Source: Pseudomonadota bacterium
GTDB taxonomy: Bacteria; Pseudomonadota; Alphaproteobacteria; Sphingomonadales; Sphingomonadaceae
Length of the DNA stretch: 64,000 bases
Assembly: GCA_038748365.1 (NCBI GenBank)
Contig: JBCDIZ010000005.1
Span: 36,092-100,091 of the forward strand
Direction of reading: 5' to 3'
Of the stretch, positions 51 to 44,232 are shown piece by piece. Both the position numbers and the translations under genes were made by a program. Position 1 is the first letter of the stretch; every line of letters begins with the position of its first letter. The notes under the pieces were generated by a model. It saw only the letters and a program-made list of their open reading frames with translations, was not told the DNA's origin and searched no databases.

Positions 51-1106
51 ATGAACATCGAGAATAGCCGGGAATATTATGGTCAGGTGCTAGGCGGATC
101 GGATGATCTGAAGACTGATGCCTGTGTTACTGCCGAGCGTCCCCCAGAGGCCATCATACGGGCGCTGGCCAATGTCCATGAAGAGGTAAAGTCGCGCTAT
201 TATGGCTGCGGCTTGATTGCGCCACAGCAGCTTGAAGGTGCGCGCATTCTCGATCTCGGTTCGGGCTCGGGTCAGGACGCTTATATTCTGGCACAGCTGG
301 TGGGTGAACAGGGCGAAGTTGTCGGCGTGGATACCACTCCAGAGCAACTGGCAGTCGCCAATGCCCATATTGACTGGCACGCAGAGCGCTTCGGTTATGC
401 CAGTCCGAATGTTCGGTTTATTGAGGGCGATATTGAGAAGCTTGACTCTCTTGATCTTGAACCGGGCAGCTTTGATGTCATTGTTTCCAATTGTGTGATC
501 AATCTGGTTGCCGATAAGGGCAAGGTCTTCGGCGACGCGCATCGGTTGCTAAAACTCGGCGGCGAAATGTATTTCTCCGATGTCTATTCTGACCGCAGGG
601 TGCCGGAGCATTTGCTCAATGATCCGGTGTTGCACGGTGAGTGTCTCTCCGGCGCACTCTATTGGGGAGATTTTTTGGCGCTGGCGAAAATCGCAGGTTT
701 TACCGATCCGCGACTGGTTAAAGACCGCCCCCTGGGCATTGGCGACCCTGCGGTTGCCGCCAAGTTGGATGGCATTAATTTCTTCTCCGCCACATATCGC
801 CTGTTCAAGCTTGATGGGCTTGAGCCTGAGTGTGAGGATTACGGCCAGGCTGTGATATATAAGGGCGGGATCAGCGGTGAAGAACGCGTTTTCGCGCTCG
901 ACAAGCATCATATGATTGAGCGGGGCAAGGTTTTTCCGGTGTGCGGCAATAGCTGGAAGATGCTCGCCGATACGCGTTTTGCGAAATATTTTGATTTTAT
1001 CGGCGATTTCTCAAAACATTATGGCGTATTTGAGGGCTGCGGCACGGGTATGCCGTTTAATATGCCAAGCGAGGGTGGTGAGACTGCTCCGGCAAGCTGT
1101 TGCTGA
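51..1106 (+). CDS. arsM: Arsenite S-adenosylmethionine methyltransferase (AS3MT-like long form)
   Basis: SAM motif ILDLGSGSG. Cys pattern matches AS3MT/ArsM: DAC25, YYGC53G, SNC148VINL, GEC198LSGAL. C-terminal CC. Window edge is only 50 bp upstream. Confidence 0.85.
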   Translation: MNIENSREYYGQVLGGSDDLKTDACVTAERPPEAIIRALANVHEEVKSRYYGCGLIAPQQLEGARILDLGSGSGQDAYILAQLVGEQGEVVGVDTTPEQLAVANAHIDWHAERFGYASPNVRFIEGDIEKLDSLDLEPGSFDVIVSNCVINLVADKGKVFGDAHRLLKLGGEMYFSDVYSDRRVPEHLLNDPVLHGECLSGALYWGDFLALAKIAGFTDPRLVKDRPLGIGDPAVAAKLDGINFFSATYRLFKLDGLEPECEDYGQAVIYKGGISGEERVFALDKHHMIERGKVFPVCGNSWKMLADTRFAKYFDFIGDFSKHYGVFEGCGTGMPFNMPSEGGETAPASCC

Positions 1107-1126
1107 GTAGCAAAGAGACTGCACCT

Positions 1127-2143
1127 ATGCGTGTTTTATTGACAGGGGCGACAGGGCTAGTCGGTGGTGCACTGGCCGGTGCTTTGCTGGATTCAGGTCA
1201 TCACATCGTTGGCGTGCTGCGCGGCGAGGGTCGTACTATGCTTGACATGGATGGGCAGGACCGGGCGGCTGAAATCACGCCTTTGCAGGGAGATGTTACC
1301 CAACCTAGTTTCGGTCTTACTGGACTTCCAGATGATATTGATTTGGTTATCCATTGTGCCGCGACCACTGACTTTACCGCCAGCGATGCGGTTTATGAGA
1401 CGGTGAATATTGGCGGTGCGCGCAATGCGGTCGCGCTGGCGCAGCAGTTAGACGCGGCTTTGCTGCATGTTTCCACGGCGTATGTTTGTGGTCGGGCCGA
1501 TGGTCCGGTTTCAGAGATGCCAGCCAATCCTGAAGGCGATTTCACCAATGGCTATGAGCGTTCCAAGGCCATCGCTGAAAGCCACGTGATGCAGGCGCGC
1601 AAACAGGGCCTGGTCGCCGCGATTGCTCGGCCGAGCATCATTGTCGGGCGCTTGTCAGATGGCGCTATTCCGCGACAGGATGATTTCTATCATCTGTTTC
1701 GCCTGTTCGGTTCTCCGCTTTTGCAGCGCGTCCCGGCAATTGATGGCGCGGCTTTCGCGATTGTTCCGCTCGATCATGTGGTTTCCGGCTTGATGGAAAT
1801 GGCCGAAAACATGGCGCAGTTTGATGGCGATGCGGTGCATCTGGTTGCTGATAAACCTTTTCCGCTTGCCGATATGCTGGATATTGTCGCGGAATATGCG
1901 CGCGCGTCTCCGGCGGAGATCGTTCATCCTGATACGTACGATGTTGACCAACTCGACCGCCGCAGCCTGATGGTGCATCGCAAGGTTGGGGCGCAATTTT
2001 TTGAGTATTTTGCCCGGGTGCCCCTGTTTGAAAGCCGTGTTCTTGCAGAGAAGGCCGGGATTATTGCACCGCATATCGATAAAGCAGCGCTGCGGCGGAT
2101 GGTGGACTATTGCCATCGCACGGGGTTTTTGGATTGGCGCTGA
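1127..2143 (+). CDS. Extended SDR / NAD_binding_4 (male-sterility-like) oxidoreductase
   Basis: TGATGLVG Rossmann motif, HCAA, HVSTAYV, YERSK catalytic motif, RPSIIVG. ATG at 1127 preferred over the TTG at 1100. Confidence 0.8.
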   Translation: MRVLLTGATGLVGGALAGALLDSGHHIVGVLRGEGRTMLDMDGQDRAAEITPLQGDVTQPSFGLTGLPDDIDLVIHCAATTDFTASDAVYETVNIGGARNAVALAQQLDAALLHVSTAYVCGRADGPVSEMPANPEGDFTNGYERSKAIAESHVMQARKQGLVAAIARPSIIVGRLSDGAIPRQDDFYHLFRLFGSPLLQRVPAIDGAAFAIVPLDHVVSGLMEMAENMAQFDGDAVHLVADKPFPLADMLDIVAEYARASPAEIVHPDTYDVDQLDRRSLMVHRKVGAQFFEYFARVPLFESRVLAEKAGIIAPHIDKAALRRMVDYCHRTGFLDWR

Positions 2144-2887
2144 TTACCGGATATCCGGGTAAATATCCCCCAGCTTTTTGCGCACCCCAAAGCTCCACAT
2201 AATCCCGATCTTGAGATAGAGATAATTGGCCTTGAGCGGGCCCCAATGGGCGATGCGGCGGTCTGAAGTAATCACCGGCTTGCGCGTCATTTTCAGCTTG
2301 CCGCGTGTTGCCATGCCAATGCACAGGTCCGCTTCTTCCATAATCGTCGCATCATCCGGGATGCCACCGACGGCAAGAAAATCCTCGCGGCGGAAGAACA
2401 TCGCATGATCGCCGAACAGCAGCCGCACCCCGCGCACGAACAGATGTGGATGGGTGACAATCGGATACCAGGTCTTGATCCAGTTATGCAGCGTCGTGCC
2501 CCAACGGGTCTTTTTGCCACGGATAATCGGCAGGAAAGTACCGAGCGATATGGTGCGATTGCTGAGCGTCTGGCGCACATGGGTGATGGCATCAGGCGGC
2601 AGGATGCTATCGGCATGCAGGACAAGGACAATCGGCCCTTCTGCCTCTTCGACACCATGGTTGATCTGTGGACCACGGCCTTTTTTGGGTGCGATAATGG
2701 CGCGGAAACCGGCGTCTTTTGCCAGTTGCACCGTGGCATCCTTGCTACCGCCATCGACAAGTAGCACCTCATCGGGCGGCGGGTCCATCGCTGCGATATT
2801 GGCTATGGTTGCAGGCAAGGCCTCTTCCTCCTGCCATGTCGGGATCAGGATGGTGACAGGCTCGCCTGTTGCTTTCTGGGCAGTCAT
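2144..2887 (-). CDS. GT2 family glycosyltransferase (TIGR04283-like)
   Basis: ILIPTWQEE, VDGGSKD, LHADS, FGDHAMF, EEADL, TSDRR motifs. ATG at 2887 overlaps the upstream TGA (ATGA). Confidence 0.8.
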   Translation of the reverse strand: MTAQKATGEPVTILIPTWQEEEALPATIANIAAMDPPPDEVLLVDGGSKDATVQLAKDAGFRAIIAPKKGRGPQINHGVEEAEGPIVLVLHADSILPPDAITHVRQTLSNRTISLGTFLPIIRGKKTRWGTTLHNWIKTWYPIVTHPHLFVRGVRLLFGDHAMFFRREDFLAVGGIPDDATIMEEADLCIGMATRGKLKMTRKPVITSDRRIAHWGPLKANYLYLKIGIMWSFGVRKKLGDIYPDIR

Positions 2888-3501
2888 GGCGGCAGGCTTT
2901 CGACAAGCGCAGGCCAGCGCGTCAGGTCTTCGGGGCGGTCGCAATCGGCCAGTGTCTCCAGCATCACCGGGGCAATAGCCATCGCCTCCAGCCGCGCCAA
3001 GGTTGTCGGCAGAACCTTATCGGTACTCCATGGCATATCGCGGAACAGATCGGGCAGCGGACGCACCATACCGATCAGATAATAACCGCCATCCTCTGCC
3101 GGGCCAATAACCACCTGATGCGTTTCTAACGCGACAACAGCTTTTTGGACAATTTCGACGGTCAGATCGGGTGTATCGGCACCAAAAAATATCTGAGGGC
3201 CCGTGCCGAGCGCCGCGAGCAGGCGATTGGTCAAATCGCCTTCAGGCTGCTCGGCATAATCGGGCGTATCGCCCAGCCATTCGCGAAAGGCCATTTCCTC
3301 TTCTCCTGCATAATGCGCCACCACCGGCTGTCCGCTGGCAATCAGCGTGGCGCAGGTCCGATGCGCCAAAGTACGATGCAGCGCTGCGGCACCTGTCTCT
3401 CCCAGTGCGGGTATCAGCCGTGTCTTGGCATAGCCGGGCACCGGATATTTGGCGAAGAGACGAAGCGTTGCAAATTTTTGATCAGTTGATGATGGCATCA
3501 T
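2884..3501 (-). CDS. DUF2064 / TIGR04282-type glycosyltransferase-like protein
   Basis: FAKYPVPGYAKTRL, Q-x-GDL, GADTPDL, GPAEDGGYYLIG, PWST, LADCDRPEDL. The listed 395-aa ORF is over-extended; the start is near ATG 3501. Confidence 0.8.
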   Translation of the reverse strand: MMPSSTDQKFATLRLFAKYPVPGYAKTRLIPALGETGAAALHRTLAHRTCATLIASGQPVVAHYAGEEEMAFREWLGDTPDYAEQPEGDLTNRLLAALGTGPQIFFGADTPDLTVEIVQKAVVALETHQVVIGPAEDGGYYLIGMVRPLPDLFRDMPWSTDKVLPTTLARLEAMAIAPVMLETLADCDRPEDLTRWPALVESLPP

Positions 3502-3531: not shown

Positions 3532-3678
3532 CCAATTCCTCCCCGGCACGGGGAGGTGGCACGCCGTAGCTTTAGCGAAGGCGTGACGGAGGGGGTTCTC
3601 CTCTCGCGCAGCGCCATGCGGACAGCCCCCTCCACCATGCTGCGCATGGTCCCCCTCCCCGTGCCGGGGAGGAATTGG
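3532..3678. repeat. REP/MITE-like palindromic element with 25-bp terminal inverted repeats
   Basis: CCAATTCCTCCCCGGCACGGGGAGG (3532-3556) and its exact reverse complement CCTCCCCGTGCCGGGGAGGAATTGG (3654-3678), with internal hairpins. Intergenic. Confidence 0.8.
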
Positions 3679-3750: not shown

Positions 3751-4383
3751 ATGTCCGAGATTGTCCTGTATGACTATTTCCGCTCGACCGCGGCCTATCG
3801 GGTGCGGCTGGCGCTCAATTTGAAGGGCGTGGACTATCGCACCGAATGGGTCAATCTCGTCGATGGTGATCAGCGCAGCGCCTCTTACACAGCGCGCAAT
3901 CCGCAGGGGCTGGTGCCGATGTTGCAGATTGATGGCCATGACCTCAGCCAGTCGCTGGCGATTATCGATTATCTTGATGCGCGCTTCCCCGCACCGCGCA
4001 TGCTCCCTGAAGACCCGGCCGCGCGGGCCAAAGTACTGGCCGATGCCATGGGGATCATCGCCGATATCCATCCGATCAACAATTTGCGCGTCTGGCAGTA
4101 TTTGAAAGACCCGTTCGGCCGTTCACAGGATGATGTGGTGCAATGGATGCATTATTGGATGACTTTGGGCTATACCGCGCTGGAACAGGCGGCGCCGGAG
4201 CAGGGCGTTTTTGGTGGCGAGACCCCGAACCTCACCGATATCTGCCTGACCGCGCAAATGTATAATGCCGAGCGTTTTGGCTTGCCTATGGAGGCGTTTC
4301 CCAAGCTGAGGCGTATTCATGCTGAGCTTGGCGAATTGGAAGCATTCAAAGCCGCTCACCCTGACAGGATTGCCACCGAATAA
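3751..4383 (+). CDS. maiA: Maleylacetoacetate isomerase (GST zeta)
   Basis: LYDYFRSTAAYRVR, NPQGLVP, QSLAIIDYLD, DIHPINNLRV. Located in the hppD/FAH neighbourhood. Confidence 0.92.
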   Translation: MSEIVLYDYFRSTAAYRVRLALNLKGVDYRTEWVNLVDGDQRSASYTARNPQGLVPMLQIDGHDLSQSLAIIDYLDARFPAPRMLPEDPAARAKVLADAMGIIADIHPINNLRVWQYLKDPFGRSQDDVVQWMHYWMTLGYTALEQAAPEQGVFGGETPNLTDICLTAQMYNAERFGLPMEAFPKLRRIHAELGELEAFKAAHPDRIATE

Positions 4384-6590
4384 TGTCTTTGCGTTTTTTG
4401 TTTTCTACTGCCTCGATATCCATTCTCGCATTGGCTGGGACACCTGCTGCAGCCATTGCACAGGATCAGCCAGACCCATGCCTGTTGATCGATTGCACCC
4501 CAGATGATGGCAATGAACAATCAGTCGAAGTTATCGATCCATCTACCATTACGTTGGAAAACATTACCGTTCTAGGTGCTCCGCTTGATGATCCGCTGGG
4601 CGATAAGGCCTATGCCGTCAGCGAAATAGGGCCGCGGGAATTGGCCAATGAAGCTAGCGGACGCATCGAAAATGCCTTGCGCAATGTGCCGGGCCTGCAG
4701 CAATTTCGTCGTTCGGATTCACGCTCGGCCAACCCGACCAGCCAGGGCGTAACCCTGCGCGGGCTCGGCGGCAACGCTGCCAGCCGCGCTTTGCTGACAC
4801 TGGATGGTGTGCCGCAGGCCGATCCCTTTGGCGGCTGGGTCAGCTTTCCAGGCTATGATGCAATGGCGATTGAGAATGTTCGCGTCCGCCGAGGCGGCGG
4901 CACAGGCAGCGATGGTGCTGGAGCCTTGGCTGGGACGATCGAGTTACGAACAAGAACACTACCAAACCCTGATCTGTTAAATGATTTGCCAATGCCTTCG
5001 AGGGAAATTGAGGGAACTTTGCGCTATGGCAGCCGCGACAGCTTGGAAGCCAATATCGCCGCCGAGCAGAAGCTGGGAACCGGCGGGCTGACCTTCTCAG
5101 CGCAATATGCGCGCGGCGATGGCTTTATCCCGGTGATTGAGGAACAGCGCGGCAGCGTTGATCGTCCGGCGGAGTACCAGCAATATGGCTTTGGCGCGCG
5201 TTTTGTCGCGCCATTGAGCGACGATACCGAGATACAGGCCAATATCCGCGCCTATAGCGATGAGCGCGAGCGCGGCTTTGCCTTTAGCGACAACCGCAAT
5301 GATGGCGCCGATGCGTCGGTACGGCTGGTGTCGCGCGGGCGTTGGCAATGGGAGGCGCTGGCCTATCTGCAGTTGCGCGAATTTCAGACCAGCTTTGGTG
5401 CTGTCGAGGCGGAGCGCAATTCTGTGCGGCAGGTGCTTGATCAGTTTAACGTGCCTTCGACGGGGCTGGGCGCAAAGTTCGAGATCCGCCCGCCAGTAGG
5501 CGACAATGCCGAGCTGCGTATAGGCGGCGATTGGCGGCGCACTGTCGGTGAGACGAATGAGCGCTTCTTCTTCCAAAATGCTGCGCCCTTGCGCGGGCGC
5601 AATGCCGGTGGGCGCACCGATACGCTGGGCGGCTATGTTGAGGCGAGTTGGCAGGTGACGCCGACATTTTTGCTCACCGGCGGCGGGCGACTGGATTATT
5701 GGTCGATTGCCAATGGTTTCCGTCGCGAATTTGAACTGGCGCCTGATATTGCCGGGCAGATTCGCAGTGATGACAGCTTTGCCGATCGTGATGGCATTGA
5801 AGGCACGGGGCGGATCGGCTTTGCCTATAATGCCGCCAGCCTGTTGACGCTGCGCGGTGCGGCCTATCTTGGCTGGCGCTTGCCGACGCTGAACGAGCTG
5901 TACCGGCCTTTCCGCGTTGGCGCCGATGCCACTGCCGCCAATGAATTGCTCGAACCCGAGCGTTTGCGCGGGGTGGAATTGGGTCTCGACTGGGAAATCT
6001 ATACGCTGCGGTTCAGCGGCACGGTGTTCTATAACCAGCTCGACAATGCCATTGCCAATGTGACGCTCGATAGCGGCCCCGGCCTGTTCCCCGGTGTCGG
6101 CTTTGTCTCAGGGGCAGGGGTGTTTCGCCAGCGCCAGAATCTGGATGCTGTCGATGCGTTGGGTGTCGAGATTGATGCCGCGATTGATATTGGCGCGTTC
6201 AGCATGTCGGTGGGTTACGCTTATGTCGATAGCGAAGTCGCGGGTAATGCCGGCGCGCAGGCGGCGATTGACGGGCTGCGTCCGGCGCAGGTGCCGCAGC
6301 ATTTTGCCAATGCCGCGCTCGACTGGCAGCCGCGCCGCAGCGATATCAGCGCCGGCGTCACGCTGCGCTATATTGGCAGCCAGTTTGAGGACGACAGCAA
6401 TACGCGCCTGCTTGATGATGCCTTCACCCTCGATGCGCGCGCCAGCTATGGTCTGAGCGATACGCTGATGCTGGAGGGCTGGGTGGAAAATCTTTTCGAT
6501 GCAGAAGTGCAGGCGGGGATCAGCGGTGCAGGTGTGGTCGAACGCGCCCGACCGCAAACCTTCTGGCTCGGCCTGAATGTGCGGCTGTGA
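4383..6590 (+). CDS. TonB-dependent receptor
   Basis: Signal peptide, plug motif (LRGLGGNAASRALLTLDGVP), beta-strand alternation, C-terminal ENLFD...FWLGLNVRL. TAATG overlap with maiA. Confidence 0.9.
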   Translation: MSLRFLFSTASISILALAGTPAAAIAQDQPDPCLLIDCTPDDGNEQSVEVIDPSTITLENITVLGAPLDDPLGDKAYAVSEIGPRELANEASGRIENALRNVPGLQQFRRSDSRSANPTSQGVTLRGLGGNAASRALLTLDGVPQADPFGGWVSFPGYDAMAIENVRVRRGGGTGSDGAGALAGTIELRTRTLPNPDLLNDLPMPSREIEGTLRYGSRDSLEANIAAEQKLGTGGLTFSAQYARGDGFIPVIEEQRGSVDRPAEYQQYGFGARFVAPLSDDTEIQANIRAYSDERERGFAFSDNRNDGADASVRLVSRGRWQWEALAYLQLREFQTSFGAVEAERNSVRQVLDQFNVPSTGLGAKFEIRPPVGDNAELRIGGDWRRTVGETNERFFFQNAAPLRGRNAGGRTDTLGGYVEASWQVTPTFLLTGGGRLDYWSIANGFRREFELAPDIAGQIRSDDSFADRDGIEGTGRIGFAYNAASLLTLRGAAYLGWRLPTLNELYRPFRVGADATAANELLEPERLRGVELGLDWEIYTLRFSGTVFYNQLDNAIANVTLDSGPGLFPGVGFVSGAGVFRQRQNLDAVDALGVEIDAAIDIGAFSMSVGYAYVDSEVAGNAGAQAAIDGLRPAQVPQHFANAALDWQPRRSDISAGVTLRYIGSQFEDDSNTRLLDDAFTLDARASYGLSDTLMLEGWVENLFDAEVQAGISGAGVVERARPQTFWLGLNVRL

Positions 6591-7048
6591 TGTCTGAGAG
6601 TAACCGCAAAAGGCTGGCGGATTTTCTGCCCTATCAGCTTTCGATCACCACCAATGCGGTCAGCAATCTCATCGCCGAGGAATATCGCAGCCGCTTTGGC
6701 CTTAAAATCACCGAGTGGCGGATAATGGCGGTGCTGGGCGATCTGGAACAGGTGACACAGCGCGAACTGGTGGCCGTCACCCGGATGGACAAGGTCGCGG
6801 TCAATCGTGCCTGCAAGGCTCTGGTCGAGCGCAAGCTGATCGCCCGCGCGCCCCATGCCAGCGATGGCCGCTCGCACCAGCTGGCGCTAACGGTGACGGG
6901 TGCAGAGCTTTATGGCGAAATCATGCCGCTGGCCGAGGATATGGAACGACGGATTTTCGCGGTGCTTTCGGCGGAAGAGGAAGCACAGATGCGCGATATG
7001 CTGACCCGCCTGCGTGAGGCGAGCGATGCTTTGCGGGGTGAGGAATAG
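6587..7048 (+). CDS. MarR family transcriptional regulator
   Basis: FLPYQLS, EWRIMAVL, DKVAVNRA, DGRS winged-helix motifs. Overlaps the TBDR stop. Confidence 0.9.
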   Translation: MMSESNRKRLADFLPYQLSITTNAVSNLIAEEYRSRFGLKITEWRIMAVLGDLEQVTQRELVAVTRMDKVAVNRACKALVERKLIARAPHASDGRSHQLALTVTGAELYGEIMPLAEDMERRIFAVLSAEEEAQMRDMLTRLREASDALRGEE

Positions 7049-7065
7049 AGAACTTGCTTCACTAT

Positions 7066-7146
7066 AATCCGTTCGCCTTTAGCGAAGTCGAGAGGCCGGT
7101 GCAACTGGAGAGCTGTGTATCGACTGCGCTCGACACGAACGGGATT
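7066..7146. repeat. REP-like imperfect palindrome (CCGTTCG...CGAACGG type)
   Basis: ATCCGTTCG...AGTCGAGA paired with ATCGACTGCGCTCGACACGAACGGGAT. Lies between convergent genes. Confidence 0.65.
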
Positions 7147-7174
7147 ATTTCAAAACTAACTCTCAAATTCCGCG

Positions 7175-7846
7175 TTAAGCCGCCTCCGCCTGTTGAACAC
7201 TATCTGACAGTTTCTGCGCCAAGTCGCGATTGATGCGGGCGCGCAGGGCGTTGTCGATATCGGGCCATTTTGCGCACAGCTTGCGCAAGGCGGCGCTGTC
7301 CCAGGCGAGTATTTCAGCATTGTCGCTGCTGATCACCGTGGCGCTGGCCGGGCCGTTGAGCAGCCAGGCGACCTCGCCGATAAAATTATTCTCTCGCAAC
7401 GGGAAGCTATCGCGGCCCTTGCTCACATGTACGATGCCGTCCGTTATGAAATAGAGCCTTTCGGGGATTTGCCCTTCCAGAGTCAGCCGCAAATCCTGCT
7501 CACCCGAAAGCCGGGTTGCCGCTTTGAGCAGGCGGCGGAACTGGCCGGGATTGAAATTGTCGAAACGGCTATAGAGCGCCTTGTCCTCATCGCTCATGCC
7601 CCAGGTGGTGCGCTCCAGAGCGATGCGCCCCATCACCACGACATTGGCGATGGTCATCAACATTGTAGAACCGATGGCAATCCACAAGGTCACCTCGGGC
7701 ACGAAGAGATAATAGGCGATGTAAAAGCCGTTGCCGATCAGCGTTAATATGCGCAGCGTCAGCTCGCCGCGCACCGCAAAGGCGATGATGTAGATGATCG
7801 CGCCGATATTGATCAGGATTGTGCCGTCAGACCAGCCCATAATCAT
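7175..7846 (-). CDS. Membrane protein with cyclic-nucleotide-binding (Popeye-like) domain
   Basis: Three N-terminal hydrophobic segments followed by LYFITDG...FIGEVAWL...ASATV CNBD motifs. No DNA-binding HTH. Confidence 0.7.
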   Translation of the reverse strand: MIMGWSDGTILINIGAIIYIIAFAVRGELTLRILTLIGNGFYIAYYLFVPEVTLWIAIGSTMLMTIANVVVMGRIALERTTWGMSDEDKALYSRFDNFNPGQFRRLLKAATRLSGEQDLRLTLEGQIPERLYFITDGIVHVSKGRDSFPLRENNFIGEVAWLLNGPASATVISSDNAEILAWDSAALRKLCAKWPDIDNALRARINRDLAQKLSDSVQQAEAA

Positions 7847-7956
7847 GCTCCCTGCCCATGGAGATATTATGCGACCTTTATGGCACTGCTATAACCGCTG
7901 CGCGCAATTTGGAAAAGACATGCAAAAGCGCATTGCAGAATCGGTGCAAAAGGAAT

Positions 7957-7976
7957 ATAGTTACAGATGATACTAT
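7957..7976. promoter_or_regulatory. Candidate MarR operator upstream of hppD
   Basis: Imperfect 20-bp palindrome ATAGTTACAG/ATGATACTAT about 35 bp before the hppD start. Confidence 0.5.
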
Positions 7977-8011
7977 TTTCAGATCACCCCTAATCTGTGG
8001 AGACCCTGCTG

Positions 8012-9139
8012 ATGAACGCCCCTGTGACTGCAAAAGCCTCTGATGTTGCCAACCCCGCCGGTCTGGACGGGTTTGAGTTTATCGAATTCTGCGCCCCCGA
8101 AAAGGGCCAGCTCGAGCCGGTATTTGAAGCCATGGGCTTTTCCCATGTCGCAACGCACCGTAGCAAGCAGGTGCATCTTTGGCGTCAGGGTGGCATCAAT
8201 CTGATCATCAACTATGAGCCGCGCAGCGCGGCCTGGTATTTTGCCCGTGAACATGGTCCTTCGGCTTGCGGCATGGCCTTCCGTGTGCATGATGCCGCCA
8301 AGGCCTATGATCATCTGATCGCCGCCGGAGCTGAGCCGGTGCATGTCGAAACCGGCCCGATGGAACTGCGCCTGCCCGCCATTCGCGGCATTGGCGGCGC
8401 GATTCTGTATCTGGTGGATCGCTATGAGGGTAAGGCAGGCAAGGATGATCTGACCATCTACGATATCGATTTTGAATATCTACCCGGTGTTGACCGCCGC
8501 CCCGAAGGCGCGGGCTTCCAGCTGATCGATCACCTGACGCACAACGTCTATACCGGCCGCATGACCTATTGGGCCGATTATTATGAGAAGCTGTTCAATT
8601 TCCGCGAGATCCGCTTTTTCGACATTAAGGGCGAATATACCGGCCTGACCTCCAAGGCGCTGACCGCGCCTGACGGCAAGATCAAAATCCCGCTCAATGA
8701 AGAAGGCGAGGGCGGCAAGGGTCAGATTGAGGAATTTCTGCGTGCATTTAACGGCGAGGGCATCCAGCATATCGCTCTGATTTGTGATGATCTGGTCGGC
8801 TGCTGGGACCGGCTGAAGAAACTCGGTGTGCCGTTCATGACCGCACCGCCGGCGACCTATTATGAGATGCTCGATGAGCGTCTGCCCGGCCATGGTGAGA
8901 ACCCGGATGAGCTGAAAATGCGCGGCATCTTGCTCGATGGCACCACCGAAGGTGGTAACGCACGTCTGCTGCTGCAAATCTTTGCCGAGCCGCAAATCGG
9001 TCCGGTGTTCTTTGAATTTATCCAGCGCAAGGGCGATGACGGCTTTGGCGAGGGCAATTTCAAGGCGCTGTTCGAAAGTATCGAGCGCGACCAGATCGCG
9101 CGCGGTGTGCTGGATGCAGACAAGGCTCCGGCGGAGTAA
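8012..9139 (+). CDS. hppD: 4-hydroxyphenylpyruvate dioxygenase
   Basis: [59 protein letters not shown] at 8012. Confidence 0.96.
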
Positions 9140-13064: not shown

Positions 13065-14342
13065 TTACCCCTCTTTCTTTGGCTTTGATGGCAGAAGCGA
13101 TTTGAAATCGCCGAATTTGCCGAGCAGCGATTTTTTTGCACCTTCGCCTTCGCTATCCTCGTCATCATCTTCAACAACACCCAAAACGCGCTCACCAAGT
13201 GATGCCATTATGGATGCAGTCTTACTATTTTTGTTAGCGGTAATAAAAGGTTGGCCGAGTTTGGCAGCAGCAGCAGCGCCTTTGAAGTCGGCTGGTATGA
13301 CGAAATCAATTTTGCGCTCAACCGAGGCTTCAAAATCCGCACGGCTGATTTCCAAGTTGCTTGGTTGTACCTTATTAGCCACCAATACTATTTGCGCCTG
13401 TGGAGCATTGCTCTTTAACCATGACAGGATGCGAATAGCATCGCGGGCAGAAGCAAGCGTTAATTCGGTGACCAAAACAGCGACATTTACATCGCTCATA
13501 AGATGCGGGAAATTGACCAGCATATTCCGTGGCAGATCAATCATCGTCGACTCAAATGCAGCACGAAATTCTTCCTGAAGCTGGAAGAATGCTGCACCAT
13601 CAGTCATCAATGGTGAACTGATCGGCGCTTCTGCAGACAATATCGCAAGTTTTTCGTTAGCCTTGATCATCGCACGCTCAATAAACAGGCCGTCAATACG
13701 GCTCGGATTATCAATCGCGTCGGTAAGGCCCCGACCAGGCTCCAAGTCCATGATCAGCGCATCGGTGCCGAAATGGACATCAAGGTCGAGCAGTGCCGTT
13801 TGGCGGTCAGCATCCTGACTGAAATACCACGCCAGTGATGTAGCAATAGTGCTGGCGCCAACGCCGCCGCGACTGCCGATAACAGCGGTTGTGACATGAG
13901 GCCGCTCACTGCCATTATCTTGCTGCTTTGGAGCACTGAAGATCGCCTGGGCCTGTACTAAGGCATCGCGCAGCTGGTCAGGGCTGACCGGCTTTAGCAG
14001 ATAGTCCTGCAAACCACTGACGATAAGATCGCGATAAAGACGTACATCATTGACCTGACCCATGGCCACGACAACGGTGCCTGGCTCACAGACCTCGGCC
14101 AGAGCATTGATATCGTTTAACGGATCGCCTGACTCAGACAGGTCGACCAAAAGGATGTTAGGACTGGCGGCAATAGAAAGTGACTGGATTGCGTTGCGTA
14201 ATCCGCCTTGATTACACTTTTCCGATTGCCAGCCCATTTCAATGCAGACTGTCCGGACGACATCCAGCGTCTCATCGTCACAGATATAGGCAGCAAAAGC
14301 ATCACGCGTGCCACTGCCCGTAGGATTGAAGGGAGCGTTCAT
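13065..14342 (-). CDS. cpaE: Pilus assembly protein CpaE/TadZ (receiver-like plus MinD-like domain)
   Basis: N-terminal receiver-like domain, GSRGGVGAST deviant P-loop, LLDLDVHFG. ATG at 14342. Confidence 0.9.
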   Translation of the reverse strand: MNAPFNPTGSGTRDAFAAYICDDETLDVVRTVCIEMGWQSEKCNQGGLRNAIQSLSIAASPNILLVDLSESGDPLNDINALAEVCEPGTVVVAMGQVNDVRLYRDLIVSGLQDYLLKPVSPDQLRDALVQAQAIFSAPKQQDNGSERPHVTTAVIGSRGGVGASTIATSLAWYFSQDADRQTALLDLDVHFGTDALIMDLEPGRGLTDAIDNPSRIDGLFIERAMIKANEKLAILSAEAPISSPLMTDGAAFFQLQEEFRAAFESTMIDLPRNMLVNFPHLMSDVNVAVLVTELTLASARDAIRILSWLKSNAPQAQIVLVANKVQPSNLEISRADFEASVERKIDFVIPADFKGAAAAAKLGQPFITANKNSKTASIMASLGERVLGVVEDDDEDSEGEGAKKSLLGKFGDFKSLLPSKPKKEG

Positions 14343-14343
14343 C

Positions 14344-15042
14344 TTATTGTCCTCCTCCACCAGCAGCACCACCGCCGCCGCCGCCGGCACCACCACCGCC
14401 GCCGCCACTGGTTCCTCCGCCGCCTAAGCCGCCTGCACCAGTTGGTTGTGCGTTACGCAGCGTCTCAATGGCTTTGATCGCTGTATCCGAGTCTGAAGTA
14501 CCATCACCCTGACCGCGCACTAGATCTTCAGCGTCGGCAACCATTGAGGCCAAGTTGCTGTTTGAGGCGCAGCCGAAATTGCTGCTGGTGCCGTTGTTGA
14601 AGTTGGTCTCGCTTACTGAGGACCAGTCCGGGCAACCATCAACGCGCGCGCTGGACCGGCTAATCACGATCCGGACATCACCAGGTGCAAGATTGCCGCC
14701 GGTGATCGGTGCAGTATCAGCGATCAGTAGGCCATATTTTGCAGCCGCAGCCTCGACCAATGATCGTACTGAACGATTGCTCACAGGATCATCTATAGAA
14801 ACGCGATCACCATAGCCTACACCCATTGCCGCAAACCATTGGGCCAGTTTGGCTTGTTCCGAAACCGGAAGAGTGCCGCCGCGCGTATTGAGGTCAAGCG
14901 CATAGTTACTACGGCTGACTACAGGCTCGTGAATGCTGTTCAGCGAGCGATTGCTAGCCGTATGGCTCGTGCAAGCCGATGCGGCAAGAGCAAGGCCGAG
15001 AATGAGGGCCGATGAAAAGGTTTTTCTATTGAATTGGGTCAT
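14344..15042 (-). CDS. cpaD: Pilus assembly lipoprotein CpaD
   Basis: Lipobox LAASAC, CPDWS, NFGCASNSNLASMVADAEDLVRG. Gly-rich C-terminal tail. Confidence 0.88.
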   Translation of the reverse strand: MTQFNRKTFSSALILGLALAASACTSHTASNRSLNSIHEPVVSRSNYALDLNTRGGTLPVSEQAKLAQWFAAMGVGYGDRVSIDDPVSNRSVRSLVEAAAAKYGLLIADTAPITGGNLAPGDVRIVISRSSARVDGCPDWSSVSETNFNNGTSSNFGCASNSNLASMVADAEDLVRGQGDGTSDSDTAIKAIETLRNAQPTGAGGLGGGGTSGGGGGGAGGGGGGAAGGGGQ

Positions 15043-15056
15043 TTCGTCGGTCCTTC

Positions 15057-16640
15057 TTATTCAAAAGTGAAGCCGGGATTTGCATCACGAGATGCGCGGC
15101 TGCTGCTTTTGCCCCTTGCTTTGCCGGTTGACTGTTGCTGAAGTGCTTGCGGGTCCGACAATTGATTGTCCGACCCACGCCTACGATCACGTGTAGGCTG
15201 TTCAACGCGTGGCATCGGGCGTTCGCCACCACTAATGCCATCCGTTTCCTGATTGAGCAGCAGTCTTTGTGCATCATTAGCAGCCTGGAACGCGTCAGTC
15301 GGCAGCTTGATGTCGTTGCTATTGACCGGCTTCACCAGATAAGGCGTAACAATTATAACAAGTTCGGTCTCGCCACGTTGGAATTCGCTTGATTTGAACA
15401 AATTGCCGAGGATTGGGACATCGCCCAGACCAGGTGCTTTATTGACTGAATTCTGCACGTTGTTGCTCATCAGACCAGCGATCATAAAGCTCTGACCAGA
15501 GCCCAATTCTACCGTTGTTTCCGCGCTACGGATCGTCAGGCCTGGGACGGTGAAGCCTTGAAGCGTCACAGCGCCTGATGCAGATAGCTCTGAGACCTCT
15601 GGACGGACGCGCAACGAGATACGGCCATTTTCCAACACGGTTGGTGTATATGCTAGGCTAACGCCAAAGCTGCGGAATTGGATCGCTACGTTGCCCAAAC
15701 CTTGAGCAATCGGAATTGGAAATTCGCCACCGGCAAGAAATTCGGCCGTTTCCCCTGACAATGCTGTCAGGTTAGGCTGGGACAAAGTAGTCACAAGACC
15801 GACAGTTTCGGCAAGATCGAGCGTTCCAGCCAAATCCAGACCGAATAGATTACCCAATCCGGCAAGCGTAGTACCGCCACCGCCAACGCCGTCAATTACA
15901 GTAGTGCCTTCCGAGCCTGCAGTCACTCCGACACCTGCCGGACCTGTTGGCGTGAATTGCGGCGAAAAGCTGCGACCTGTTGTCACACCGAATTGGAAGC
16001 CATTGGTGGAATCGGCGCTCAATAGATTGGCACCAATGTTTTTCACCAGTGAGCGGCTGACTTCAGCGATTTTTACCTGCAGATTGACCTGCAAAGGCGT
16101 TGCCGTTTTCAGGCGGCTGATAACCTCGGTTTCTTCGCCAACAAATGCCTGCACTAGACGTTCAGCCTCGGCTGCATCGCCGGGTGCGGCAATGGTTCCG
16201 GTCAAAAGCACCAGACCATTCATAGTGGCTACATTGATATCGGCTTCTGGCATAGCCAGGGTCAGCATTTGATCAATTGAGTCAATGTTCGAGCCAACAC
16301 GGATCGTTGCCGAATAGACAACAGAGCCTGCTGCATTACTCGCATAGAGAGTGGTTTCGCCGCCTGCTTTGCCAAAGACATAGAGCTGGCGTGCGCTCTT
16401 CACTTGCACATCAGCAATCTGATCATCGGCGATGAACAGGTCAGTGATGTTACCGGGCAGGCTAACCAACTGACCGCGTCCAATGGAGAGTACGATCTCG
16501 CTTGAAGGCTTCGGGCTAGTCTGGGCAACTGCCGGTGCCGCACCGATGGTTGATCCAATAGCGGCCAAGGCACCAACGCAGATGCCGCTGGCAAGCGCGG
16601 AACCAACTACGGTCCTGCGGAAATTTTTAGTAAAGCTCAT
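15057..16640 (-). CDS. cpaC: Pilus secretin CpaC/RcpA
   Basis: T2SS-T3SS_pil_N, BON and secretin motifs (PNLTALSGETAEFLAGGEFP, PGLGDVPILGNLFKS). ATG 16640 is the likely start. Confidence 0.92.
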   Translation of the reverse strand: MSFTKNFRRTVVGSALASGICVGALAAIGSTIGAAPAVAQTSPKPSSEIVLSIGRGQLVSLPGNITDLFIADDQIADVQVKSARQLYVFGKAGGETTLYASNAAGSVVYSATIRVGSNIDSIDQMLTLAMPEADINVATMNGLVLLTGTIAAPGDAAEAERLVQAFVGEETEVISRLKTATPLQVNLQVKIAEVSRSLVKNIGANLLSADSTNGFQFGVTTGRSFSPQFTPTGPAGVGVTAGSEGTTVIDGVGGGGTTLAGLGNLFGLDLAGTLDLAETVGLVTTLSQPNLTALSGETAEFLAGGEFPIPIAQGLGNVAIQFRSFGVSLAYTPTVLENGRISLRVRPEVSELSASGAVTLQGFTVPGLTIRSAETTVELGSGQSFMIAGLMSNNVQNSVNKAPGLGDVPILGNLFKSSEFQRGETELVIIVTPYLVKPVNSNDIKLPTDAFQAANDAQRLLLNQETDGISGGERPMPRVEQPTRDRRRGSDNQLSDPQALQQQSTGKARGKSSSRASRDANPGFTFE

Positions 16641-42142: not shown

Positions 42143-43210
42143 ATGGACACATACCCTGTTGTTATTATTGGCGCTGGACCGGCCGGAATCGGCATTGGGG
42201 CGCTGCTTTCACAATGTGCGGTACCGGCGCTGATATTGGAACGCGGCCGTATCGGAGAAAGCATGAAGCGCTGGCCGAAGGAAACGCGTTTTATCTCGCC
42301 ATCCTTTACCGGCAACTTTTTTGGTGCGGTTGATCTGAATGCGATTACGCCCGACAGCTCGCCCGCCTTCGGGATGCAGACAGAGCATCCATCGGGCGTG
42401 CAATATATGGACTATCTTGAAGATGTCGCCGATATCCACAAGCTGGATATTGAAGAGGGCGTCGAGGTTCTCGACTTTGAGGTCCAGGATAATGGCATGA
42501 TACTGCTCACCACAAGCGAGGGCGATGTGCAATGCCATGCGCTGATCTGGGCCGGGGGAGAATTTCAATATAAGAAAACCATACCGCACACGATACGCGT
42601 CGGCGAATCCTACAAGGCTCTGCCCCAAGGGCATCATGTCATTATCGGCGGCGCGGAAAGCGGCATGGAGACGGCATATAATCTGGTGAAAAACGGCTCT
42701 ACGGTAAGTGTCGTCGATCCGTCAGCGCCCTGGGCCACACGGGTTAGCGATTCCAGCTATGGCCTCAGCCCATTCACATTTTCGCGTGTGCGCTTTCTGG
42801 AAAAGAGCGAAAAAGCAGAGTTTATTCCGGAAGCTGCTGAAGAGATCACCGACAAAACGGTGCGGACGCAAAGCCGTGTTCTCAACCTTGAGCATCCGGC
42901 GATCGACGCCACCGGCTTTGACATACAGCAAAGCTTGGCCGGAAAGCTGTTCGACTTCAAAGATGGCCATCCCGCTTTGACCGAACATGATGAGAGCACG
43001 ATCCACAAAAATGTCTATCTCGTTGGCCCTAATGTTCAGCACGACAAGGCGATATTCTGCTTCATCTACAAATATCGCCAGCGCTTTGCTGTGATTGTGA
43101 ACGAGATGCTGCGCCGCTGGGAAACGCAGAGTCCGATGATTGCCGACTATGCCGCCAAGGGCTTTTTCCTCGATGATCTGAGCTGTTGCGACGGGGAATG
43201 CGAATGCTGA
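42143..43210 (+). CDS. NAD(P)/FAD-dependent oxidoreductase with C-terminal CCxxxCxC
   Basis: IIGAGPAGIG, EHPSG..Y, WAGGEF, IIGGAESG, FCFIYKYRQRF, tail DDLSCCDGECEC. Confidence 0.85.
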   Translation: MDTYPVVIIGAGPAGIGIGALLSQCAVPALILERGRIGESMKRWPKETRFISPSFTGNFFGAVDLNAITPDSSPAFGMQTEHPSGVQYMDYLEDVADIHKLDIEEGVEVLDFEVQDNGMILLTTSEGDVQCHALIWAGGEFQYKKTIPHTIRVGESYKALPQGHHVIIGGAESGMETAYNLVKNGSTVSVVDPSAPWATRVSDSSYGLSPFTFSRVRFLEKSEKAEFIPEAAEEITDKTVRTQSRVLNLEHPAIDATGFDIQQSLAGKLFDFKDGHPALTEHDESTIHKNVYLVGPNVQHDKAIFCFIYKYRQRFAVIVNEMLRRWETQSPMIADYAAKGFFLDDLSCCDGECEC

Positions 43211-44232
43211 GCGGGGCATTGCAAAAGGCGGCCGATTTCATGTTCGGCTCGGGTACGGCCTTTGTGCTGATCGGCGCTATAATCGGGGGTTCGCTTATCG
43301 GAATCGCGCTGCCCGGGGCAGGCGACATGCTCTCCGGCCAGATTGATTATACCATCTTGCTGCTGGTCTTCCTGTTGCTGTTTGAAGTGCGGGTGCAGAA
43401 TGTGCTGTCCAGCCTCAACCGCATACCGTTTCTCGCTGCTACCCTGATTGCCAATTTTATCATCATCCCGGCGCTCGGTTTTGGCCTTGCCTCGGCTTTT
43501 ATGTTCGCGCATCCGCTGTTTTTTATCGGCCTTGTTATCTATTTCATGGCGCCGTGCACCGACTGGTTTTTAGGCTTCACCCGGCTGGCAAAGGGCAACA
43601 CGGCTTTGGGCGCGGCGCTTTTGCCGATCAATATGATCGTCCAGCTTCTGCTCTATCCGGTCTATCTGCACCTATTCGGCATAGACGCGATAGAAACCGG
43701 CGCAGGCGATATCGCGCAAACGCTGTGGCAATGGTTTCTGGTTCCGCTTCTCGCGGCACTGATCCTGCGCTTTGTTGCGGAACGGATCTTGCGCGAAGAT
43801 CAAATGCAATTCGTGCAAAATCTGGTGGCGCTGATTGTTCCGCTTTTATTGGCGCTTCTCGTTGGGCAGATATTTGCTGCCAATATTGGCACCTTAATCT
43901 CCAATATCGCGATTTTCCCGCTGATCCTCTGTGCCATCTTTCTGTTCTTTGTCCTGACTTTCTTGCTAAGCGAAGCGATCGCGAAAATCATGAAGCTGAG
44001 CTATGAAGACCGCGTATTGATGACAATGACCACCGCAGCACGCAATGCGCCGCTCATGCTGGCTGTCACCATGGTGGTCATTCCTGACCAGCCGGTTGTT
44101 TATGCCGCGATCATTATCGGCATGCTGGTCGAGTTTCCGCATCTGGTGGCTTTGAAAGTGATTCTGGAACGCCGCCGTGCTTTGGGTGAAGAAGGGGTGA
44201 CGGAGCCACATAGGAATCCTCTGGCCAGATAA
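43204..44232 (+). CDS. Acr3/SBF (BART superfamily) transporter
   Basis: About 10 TM helices, APCTDW..FT.LAKGN, ARNAPL, GMLVEFP. ATG 43204 overlaps the upstream stop. Confidence 0.8.
   Translation: MLSGALQKAADFMFGSGTAFVLIGAIIGGSLIGIALPGAGDMLSGQIDYTILLLVFLLLFEVRVQNVLSSLNRIPFLAATLIANFIIIPALGFGLASAFMFAHPLFFIGLVIYFMAPCTDWFLGFTRLAKGNTALGAALLPINMIVQLLLYPVYLHLFGIDAIETGAGDIAQTLWQWFLVPLLAALILRFVAERILREDQMQFVQNLVALIVPLLLALLVGQIFAANIGTLISNIAIFPLILCAIFLFFVLTFLLSEAIAKIMKLSYEDRVLMTMTTAARNAPLMLAVTMVVIPDQPVVYAAIIIGMLVEFPHLVALKVILERRRALGEEGVTEPHRNPLAR

Follow-up and report, generated by a model that had tools for sequence, protein, structure and literature searches.

Arsenosugars and arsenolipids are major arsenic species of the sea and of seafood. 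To our knowledge, their known producers are cyanobacteria and algae, and ArsM and ArsS are the only enzymes demonstrated in arsenosugar biosynthesis, with the later steps being undefined. The reaction of ArsS is the adenosylation of arsenic (Cheng et al. 2021, PMID 33427387, as cited in PMC12159101). In the ArsS-ArsM arsenosugar cassette of the Synechocystis type, an arsenic S-adenosylmethionine (SAM) methyltransferase and a radical SAM enzyme occur together with translationally linked genes for a family-2 glycosyltransferase (GT2) and a DUF2064 protein, and sometimes with a flavin adenine dinucleotide (FAD) oxidoreductase. Radical SAM enzyme and ArsM are likewise paired in the arsinothricin arsQML cluster, in which ArsL is the C-As bond former (bioRxiv 10.1101/2024.02.01.577332). 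In this study, a locus sharing these components of the Synechocystis-type cassette was analysed in a stretch of 64,000 nucleotides from a bacterium of the Sphingomonadaceae (contig JBCDIZ010000005.1, positions 36,092 to 100,091; G000:C5:36092-100091). The whole stretch is referred to as the window, and the genome from which it comes is 99.99% complete. Although distinct from ArsS, the radical SAM protein of this locus (rSAM) occupies the position that ArsS has in this gene set. The most plausible reading is therefore a variant arsenosugar-type pathway, in which organoarsenicals would be made by means of a non-canonical adenosylating rSAM; the probability of this reading is put at about 0.6.

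Composition and conservation of the gene cluster

An interpretation made earlier from the letters of the window alone (the sequence-only reading) had described a four-gene organoarsenical locus at the left end of the window, with arsM and a short-chain dehydrogenase/reductase (SDR) gene converging on GT2 and DUF2064 genes. All four genes were present, with the coordinates and orientations that had been given. The same reading had advised a search for arsS upstream of position 1. The upstream DNA (16 kb) was fetched as locus L011, in which the window position equals the L011 position minus 15999, and three minus-strand genes diverging from arsM were found there, encoding an FAD oxidoreductase, a rhodanese and, in the place of ArsS, rSAM. 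The conserved cluster, one of Sphingomonadales, comprises six genes, rSAM and the FAD oxidoreductase among them; the four genes in the window make up its right-hand part, so the locus is larger than first described. The rSAM gene (L011:12288-13145, minus strand, PF04055) lies about 3 kb upstream of the window. The FAD-containing pyridine-nucleotide-disulfide oxidoreductase (L011 about 14213-15637, minus strand) has the redox motif CLNTGC and no C-terminal cysteine pair of the MerA type.

The arsM gene (51..1106, plus strand) encodes a predicted AS3MT-type arsenite SAM methyltransferase of 351 amino acids (aa) with a CC tail at the C-terminus, as judged from solved relatives, the cysteine pattern and PF13847 (114 bits). 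Searches against solved arsenite methyltransferases gave E values of 1.6e-101 for 5evj (residues 7-333), 2.9e-80 for 4fr0/4kw7 and 3e-77 for 8xt7. The four expected cysteines were found at exactly the positions named in the sequence-only reading (25, 53, 148 and 198) and align with Cys44, Cys72, Cys174 and Cys224 of the solved Cyanidioschyzon ArsM, which are the As(III)-binding and disulfide-relay cysteines; the SAM-binding motif LDLGSGSG is also present. The protein scored under the curated NCBIfam cut-offs for ArsM, with 154.3 bits against 263 for PRK11873 (residues 39-233 only) and 81.4 against 400 for NF038099 (AsSugarArsM). The closest ArsM-centred loci were those of Parasphingorhabdus sp. 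DH2-15 and uncultured Sphingomonadaceae, with ArsM identities of 86-87%. From the strong homology and the four cysteines, we infer that this arsenite methyltransferase homologue would produce dimethylarsenite.

The DUF2064 gene (2884..3501, minus strand) encodes a protein of 205 aa with a predicted fold like that of nucleotide-diphospho-sugar transferases (CofC/MobA-like). With 174.4 bits against a cut-off of 134 and a match over profile positions 3-189 of 189, it is a member of TIGR04282; it also matched PF09837 (90.9 bits) and the structural-genomics entry 3cgx (E 2.2e-19). The GT2 gene (2144..2887, minus strand, with the open reading frame (ORF) extending to 2944) encodes 247 aa from the ATG at 2887. 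It matched PF00535 at 79 bits and narrowly missed TIGR04283 (164.1 bits against 182, profile positions 2-215 of 221). The hidden Markov model scans thus bore out the TIGR04282 assignment of the sequence-only reading, and GT2 can be called TIGR04283-like only. The two genes were correctly described as coupled, the DUF2064 stop and the GT2 start overlapping in ATGA at 2884-2887, and they were found together in about 60 of 80 loci. Prediction of a complex between the two proteins returned "no answer" with a score of 0.00, which carries no weight either way.

The SDR gene (1127..2143, plus strand; the ORF opens with TTG at 1100 and the likely start is the ATG at 1127) encodes a putative extended SDR of the thioester-reductase or "male sterility" type. 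Scores were 122.6 bits for PF07993 (NAD_binding_4), 67 bits for PF01370 and 124.7 bits for TIGR01746 (thioester reductase; cut-off 213), and the motifs TGATGLVGG and YERSK are present. Its nearest solved relatives are the terminal reductases MxaA (1e-14) and AusA of nonribosomal peptide and polyketide synthetases. An SDR gene lies downstream of arsM in 61 of 81 loci, the present one being counted, with an identity of only 35-40% outside close relatives; it is a lineage-specific accessory of the cluster. The gene pairs converge as had been claimed, and the SDR stop (TGA, to 2143) abuts the GT2 stop (TAA, minus strand, from 2144) with zero spacer, which leaves the convergent transcripts without space for an intervening terminator.

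Conservation was assessed in the 80 best ArsM-centred loci, nearly all of which are from Sphingomonadales. Genes for rSAM, ArsM, GT2 and DUF2064 occurred within 6 kb in 59 of these 80, and in 31 of the 59 the SDR and FAD oxidoreductase genes were present as well. The same six families emerged when all ORFs of the neighbourhood were clustered without bias. Candidate cultured carriers of the six-gene cluster are Parasphingorhabdus sp. DH2-15 (L013) and Alterisphingorhabdus coralli, the rSAM of the latter showing 88% identity. Co-occurrence was assessed in a sample of 301 genomes, including 83 of Alphaproteobacteria. ArsS above the cut-off was found in 129 genomes and in none of the 83 from Alphaproteobacteria. 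The sphingomonad-type rSAM was found in 23 genomes; all 23 had TIGR04282, even where the genes were far apart, none had ArsS, and 14 had an AS3MT-type ArsM. All 11 ArsM-bearing alphaproteobacterial genomes had rSAM.

Canonical ArsS of other Pseudomonadota was found in the same company. The order ArsS-GT2-DUF2064 was seen in loci L114, L115 and L117, ArsS-ArsM in L112, and ArsS in L118 adjoins an FAD oxidoreductase 46% identical to that of the cluster. The association of TIGR04282 and TIGR04283 with ArsS and ArsM, which had been stated in the sequence-only reading, is therefore borne out by these loci. More distant rSAM relatives, with 35-38% identity, lie directly after ArsM in genomes G159 and G183 of another family (gammaproteobacteria or similar), and G159 additionally has DUF2064-GT2 and the FAD oxidoreductase.

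The rSAM family and its relation to ArsS

Canonical ArsS was ruled out in this genome. No match to TIGR04167 (ArsS) above the cut-off of 300 bits was found; the best was rSAM itself, with 66 bits over profile positions 3-150 of 303, the N-terminal half, whereas true members in the genome sample scored 380-480 bits. Pfam scanning at E ≤ 1e-4 gave PF04055 alone for rSAM, without DUF3641 (PF12345). On sequence grounds, rSAM belongs to an undescribed family distinct from ArsS, being either non-orthologous or very divergent. The sequence-only reading had counted a lack of arsS anywhere in the genome against itself. The gene is indeed lacking, yet the absence does not refute the organoarsenical idea, because a different rSAM fills the place of ArsS in the cluster.

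Annotation of the family is generic: more than 8000 relatives in public sources are labelled merely "radical SAM protein". When 1.8 billion representative sequences were scanned in full with HMMER, 185 rSAM-family representatives were found at E ≤ 1e-30. The CX3CX2C motif (CNLACASC) has C15, C19 and C22 invariant among 34 sequences; further invariant cysteines are in the C-terminal part at 210, 223, 243, 272 and 276, and that at 283 is nearly invariant.

Profile-profile comparison of the rSAM family with 26 ArsS sequences gave an overall probability of 99.1%. In the C-terminal halves, the motifs MC..., (Y)D..F(D/N) and HC..C...SC.G line up. In language-model features, ArsS was the family nearest to rSAM after its own. 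The AlphaFold2 model of rSAM (pLDDT, the model confidence score, 87.2) had its best match in the AlphaFold DB with residues 15-293 of a 634-aa entry named "arsenite methyltransferase", with a template modelling (TM) score of 0.87; the others were at about 0.6-0.7. Against ArsS/DUF3641 clusters of the ESM Atlas, TM scores of 0.79-0.80 were obtained over 261-262 of 285 residues.

Natural fusions were present among the 185 representatives. P0274 is an ArsM+rSAM fusion, in which the ArsM domain is 44% identical to the ArsM of the window and keeps the four cysteines. P0125 and P0265 are DUF2064+rSAM fusions, the N-terminal DUF2064 domain of P0125 being 49% identical to the DUF2064 protein of the window. 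Fusions with Metallophos_2 (P0126 and P0127) and with an HD_3/YfbR-like domain (P0129) were also found.

The proposal of the sequence-only reading that this organism may make arsenosugars or a related organoarsenical thus remains the best one, given the synteny in 59 of 80 loci, the presence of TIGR04282 and absence of ArsS in all 23 rSAM-bearing genomes, and the fusions; the route, however, would not run via ArsS.

Proposed pathway and rival explanations

In the variant arsenosugar-type pathway, ArsM would methylate As(III) to dimethylarsenite. As suggested by gene context, fusions and fold, rSAM would add the 5'-deoxyadenosyl radical of SAM to the trivalent methylated arsenic, giving 5'-deoxy-5'-dimethylarsinoyl-adenosine, and the flavoprotein disulfide reductase would probably prevent oxidation of the arsenical or of the enzyme thiols in this aerobe. 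The following steps are speculative. Adenine might be removed, plausibly by S-methyl-5'-thioadenosine (MTA) phosphorylase acting on an MTA analogue, to give arsenoribose-1-phosphate; the nucleotidyltransferase-like DUF2064 protein and GT2 might then convert the arsenoribosyl unit to an activated form and pass it on to an acceptor, yielding an arsenoriboside or an arsenolipid head group, with a phosphohydrolase possibly acting somewhere in between. The SDR would be a lineage-specific tailoring enzyme.

The order of phosphorolysis of an MTA-like adenosyl-arsenical, activation by DUF2064 and transfer by GT2 is suggested by the adjacency of MTA phosphorylase and by the phosphoesterase fusions. A bona fide MTA phosphorylase (459 bits against 437) lies tail-to-tail with rSAM in 36 of the 80 loci (for example, L024:6553-7425). 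In loci of the Erythrobacteraceae type, the cluster is flanked by genes for a 665-aa GT87-like and GT2 membrane protein (L030:13129-15126), an OlsE-like fatty-acid hydroxylase (L050:13454-14245) and a DUF547 protein (L030:6014-7162), the flanking genes being found in 20-28 loci each. The DUF547, OlsE-like hydroxylase and GT87-GT2 flanks hint at a lipid-bound product in these loci. As universal partners of the cluster, MTA phosphorylase, DUF547, the fatty-acid-hydroxylase-like protein and GT87-GT2 were rejected; they were seen in Sphingomonadales loci only and not beside canonical ArsS or distant rSAM.

A wider claim is that this undescribed family replaces ArsS throughout Alphaproteobacteria as the former of an adenosyl (or other) C-As bond and that, with ArsM, the flavoprotein, MTA phosphorylase, DUF2064 and GT2, it makes arsenoribosides or arsenolipids in aerobic marine heterotrophs. 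This claim is tentative, and we would put it somewhat below even odds.

Several observations weigh against the variant arsenosugar-type pathway. Besides the low TIGR04167 score and the missing DUF3641, the best curated match of rSAM was to the uncharacterised Rv1681 family (102 bits against 380), and a literature search on Rv1681/MoeX found no functional study. When the C-terminal halves of rSAM and ArsS alone were compared by hhalign, the result was not significant (E 0.06), and for the rSAM relatives of G159 and G183, ArsS was merely one among many generic radical SAM matches. The functions of TIGR04282 and TIGR04283 are names by association; a literature search on TIGR04282, TIGR04283, DUF2064, arsenosugar glycosyltransferases and sphingomonads with arsenosugars found no functional study. 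In this genome, the MTA phosphorylase orthologue (76% identity) is on another contig, C7, and the adjacency of this gene to rSAM, confined to one order, may be inherited synteny. The genomes sampled are related and not independent, so the counts given above overstate independence.

Gene content also differs in some genomes. ArsM is absent from 9 of the 23 genomes that have rSAM and TIGR04282, and G132 has its rSAM gene on its own, flanked by gyrA and zwf. The substrates of the rSAM/GT system may therefore be methylarsenicals taken up from outside, or the system may lack specificity for arsenic. Eleven loci (Blastomonas and a few others) keep only the FAD oxidoreductase, ArsM and SDR genes. Genome G032, from the same family, contains locus L144 (G032:C2:340000-354000), in which a stretch of about 5 kb includes matches to rSAM, the FAD oxidoreductase and DUF2064, all on the minus strand, and an ORF of GT2 size (a putative GT2) between those genes; no ArsM was found in the genome and no SDR at the locus. 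From this arrangement, the plus-strand ArsM-SDR pair looks like a module that was inserted into that operon.

A rival reading is that the locus serves detoxification only. ArsM, possibly with the aid of the SDR and the flavoprotein reductase, would turn arsenite into volatile or excreted methylarsenicals, and rSAM, GT2 and DUF2064 would form a separate system alongside that does not act on arsenic. The rSAM and TIGR04282 genes in genomes lacking ArsM, the Blastomonas-type loci with no rSAM or GT genes nearby, the apparently uninterrupted same-strand run of DUF2064, GT2, FAD oxidoreductase and rSAM in G032, and the exclusion of rSAM from TIGR04167 all agree with it. It is nevertheless unlikely in view of the ArsM+rSAM fusion proteins, the adjacency of ArsM and rSAM even in another family, where rSAM is only 35-38% identical, the presence of rSAM in 11 of 11 ArsM-bearing alphaproteobacterial genomes, and the same set of partners around canonical ArsS. 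Genomes without ArsM, for their part, could take up dimethylarsenate from sea water.

Salvage or breakdown of algal arsenosugars and arsenolipids, with rSAM and the GT-like proteins acting on imported arsenoribosides, is improbable. It would suit the marine origin of the DNA; the locus was matched in a single sequencing run, of marine metagenome DNA, which is possibly the source sample, and no RNA run was listed among the runs containing the locus DNA. Associates that cleave nucleosides or phosphates, namely the neighbouring MTA phosphorylase and the HD_3 and Metallophos_2 fusions, would also suit salvage. However, ArsM, a nucleotidyltransferase-like protein and GT2 are typically anabolic, and none of the conserved genes of the cluster encodes a transporter, a glycosidase or a C-As lyase. 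Least credible, with a very low probability, is a role with another element such as selenium, tellurium or sulfur. Se or Te would then be the substrate of the ArsM-like methyltransferase, and processing of the element would fall to the rhodanese and the disulfide reductase. Such an oxidoreductase and, in this genome, a rhodanese are present, and TIGR04167 bears the description "(seleno)protein" in NCBIfam, but the four-cysteine As(III) site is intact, the similarity to solved arsenite methyltransferases is high, and the rhodanese, found in this genome only among the loci compared, is not a conserved part.

If the wider claim about the rSAM family is correct, it would bring to light a new enzyme that forms C-As bonds, as well as the steps that are missing beyond dimethylarsinoyl-adenosine. 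The locus suggests that a second family of radical SAM enzymes takes part in arsenic chemistry, and its neighbours and fusions (MTA phosphorylase, DUF2064, GT2 and phosphoesterases) suggest specific candidate enzymes for the post-adenosylation steps. Bacteria, possibly aerobic heterotrophs, have been proposed as an overlooked source of arsenolipids in a preprint on ocean particles (bioRxiv 10.1101/2021.03.22.436501); for such a bacterial source the locus, widespread in Sphingomonadales that can be cultivated, offers a concrete candidate at the gene level.

Surrounding features and comparison with described systems

Other arsenic genes were sought in the whole genome. No ACR3 match above the cut-off was found; the best was a 348-aa membrane protein encoded in the window at 43186-44232 (plus strand), which matched the model over its full length with 76 bits against 283 and scored lower, 26 bits, against bile-acid:sodium symporters. 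The genome gave no match to ArsB and none to ArsH above its cut-off, and two genes of the ArsC/Spx family (PF03960) are on contigs C1 and C8. The statement of the sequence-only reading that no ars resistance genes flank the locus within the window is accordingly nearly right, the distant ACR3-like transporter being the one exception. Judging by these searches, the organism may be without classical arsenite efflux, and because recognisable arsenite efflux pumps are lacking, it may deal with arsenic mainly through this pathway.

Between rSAM and the FAD oxidoreductase lies the gene for the rhodanese (L011:13446-14066, minus strand, about 2 kb before the window start), which has a predicted signal peptide and matched NF045521 ("rhoda_near_glyco") weakly, with 29.5 bits against 145. 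It was rejected as a member of the cluster, being present in this genome only among all loci compared. The gene adjoining rSAM on its other side (L011:11262-12116, plus strand, 284 aa) is common only to the two closest relatives (69-70% identity); its borderline match to NUDIX or coenzyme A pyrophosphatase, about 22 bits (21.5), is too weak for more than a hint, and a NUDIX identity was not accepted. The intergenic region of the divergent promoter is about 410 nt in this genome, longer than in relatives and poorly alignable, and alignment with relatives showed no clear conserved operator.

On the other side, a repeat of about 65 bp that is GC-rich and forms a hairpin (window 3533-3600) lies in the spacer between DUF2064 and the next gene, and it has 28 further matches across contigs of the genome at 76-97% identity. 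It has the look of a repetitive extragenic palindrome or miniature inverted-repeat transposable element (REP/MITE type), with a fold z-score of only -2.1. Past the cluster, ORF translations alone suggested a maleylacetoacetate-isomerase-type glutathione S-transferase (3751-4383) and a TonB-dependent receptor (4383-6590), both syntenic in close relatives, followed by a MarR regulator (6587-7048) and a 4-hydroxyphenylpyruvate-dioxygenase-like protein (7997-9139). The genes at 3751-9139 suggest aromatic amino-acid catabolism unrelated to the cluster.

Compared with described enzymes, the ArsM of the window shares full-length homology, the four cysteines and the SAM-binding GxGxG motif with AS3MT/ArsM proteins of solved structure (5evj, 4fr0/4kw7 and 8xt7), but it is in a biosynthetic-looking cluster and not in an ars resistance operon. 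HpnH, the adenosyl-hopene transferase, was the next-best named fold match of rSAM (ESM Atlas, TM 0.72). Like ArsS, HpnH is a radical SAM enzyme that adds an adenosyl radical to its substrate. Its sequence similarity to rSAM is low (TIGR03470, 33 bits against 225), and rSAM has no hopanoid gene context. The arsinothricin arsQML cluster is without the GT2/DUF2064 pair; no ArsL model was among the 25 best of the 34 NCBIfam matches of rSAM, and the ArsM of the window scored 128 bits against 500 with the arsinothricin ArsM model.

ArsS itself resembles rSAM in having CX3CX2C near the N-terminus in a similar context (LxTLxxNxGxxCNxxC), a similar length, and a cysteine-rich C-terminus with an end like HC..C..SC.G. 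Significant sequence similarity between the two falls within the radical SAM core, they are unlike in the spacing of cysteines (CX3C...CX6C against CX2C...CX7C), and ArsS and the rSAM family were never found in one genome of the sample. Measured against the Synechocystis-type cassette as a whole, the present locus has a radical SAM enzyme of another family, an ArsM of the long AS3MT type and not of NF038099, a GT2 under the TIGR04283 cut-off and an added SDR, and its host is an aerobic marine heterotroph and not a cyanobacterium.

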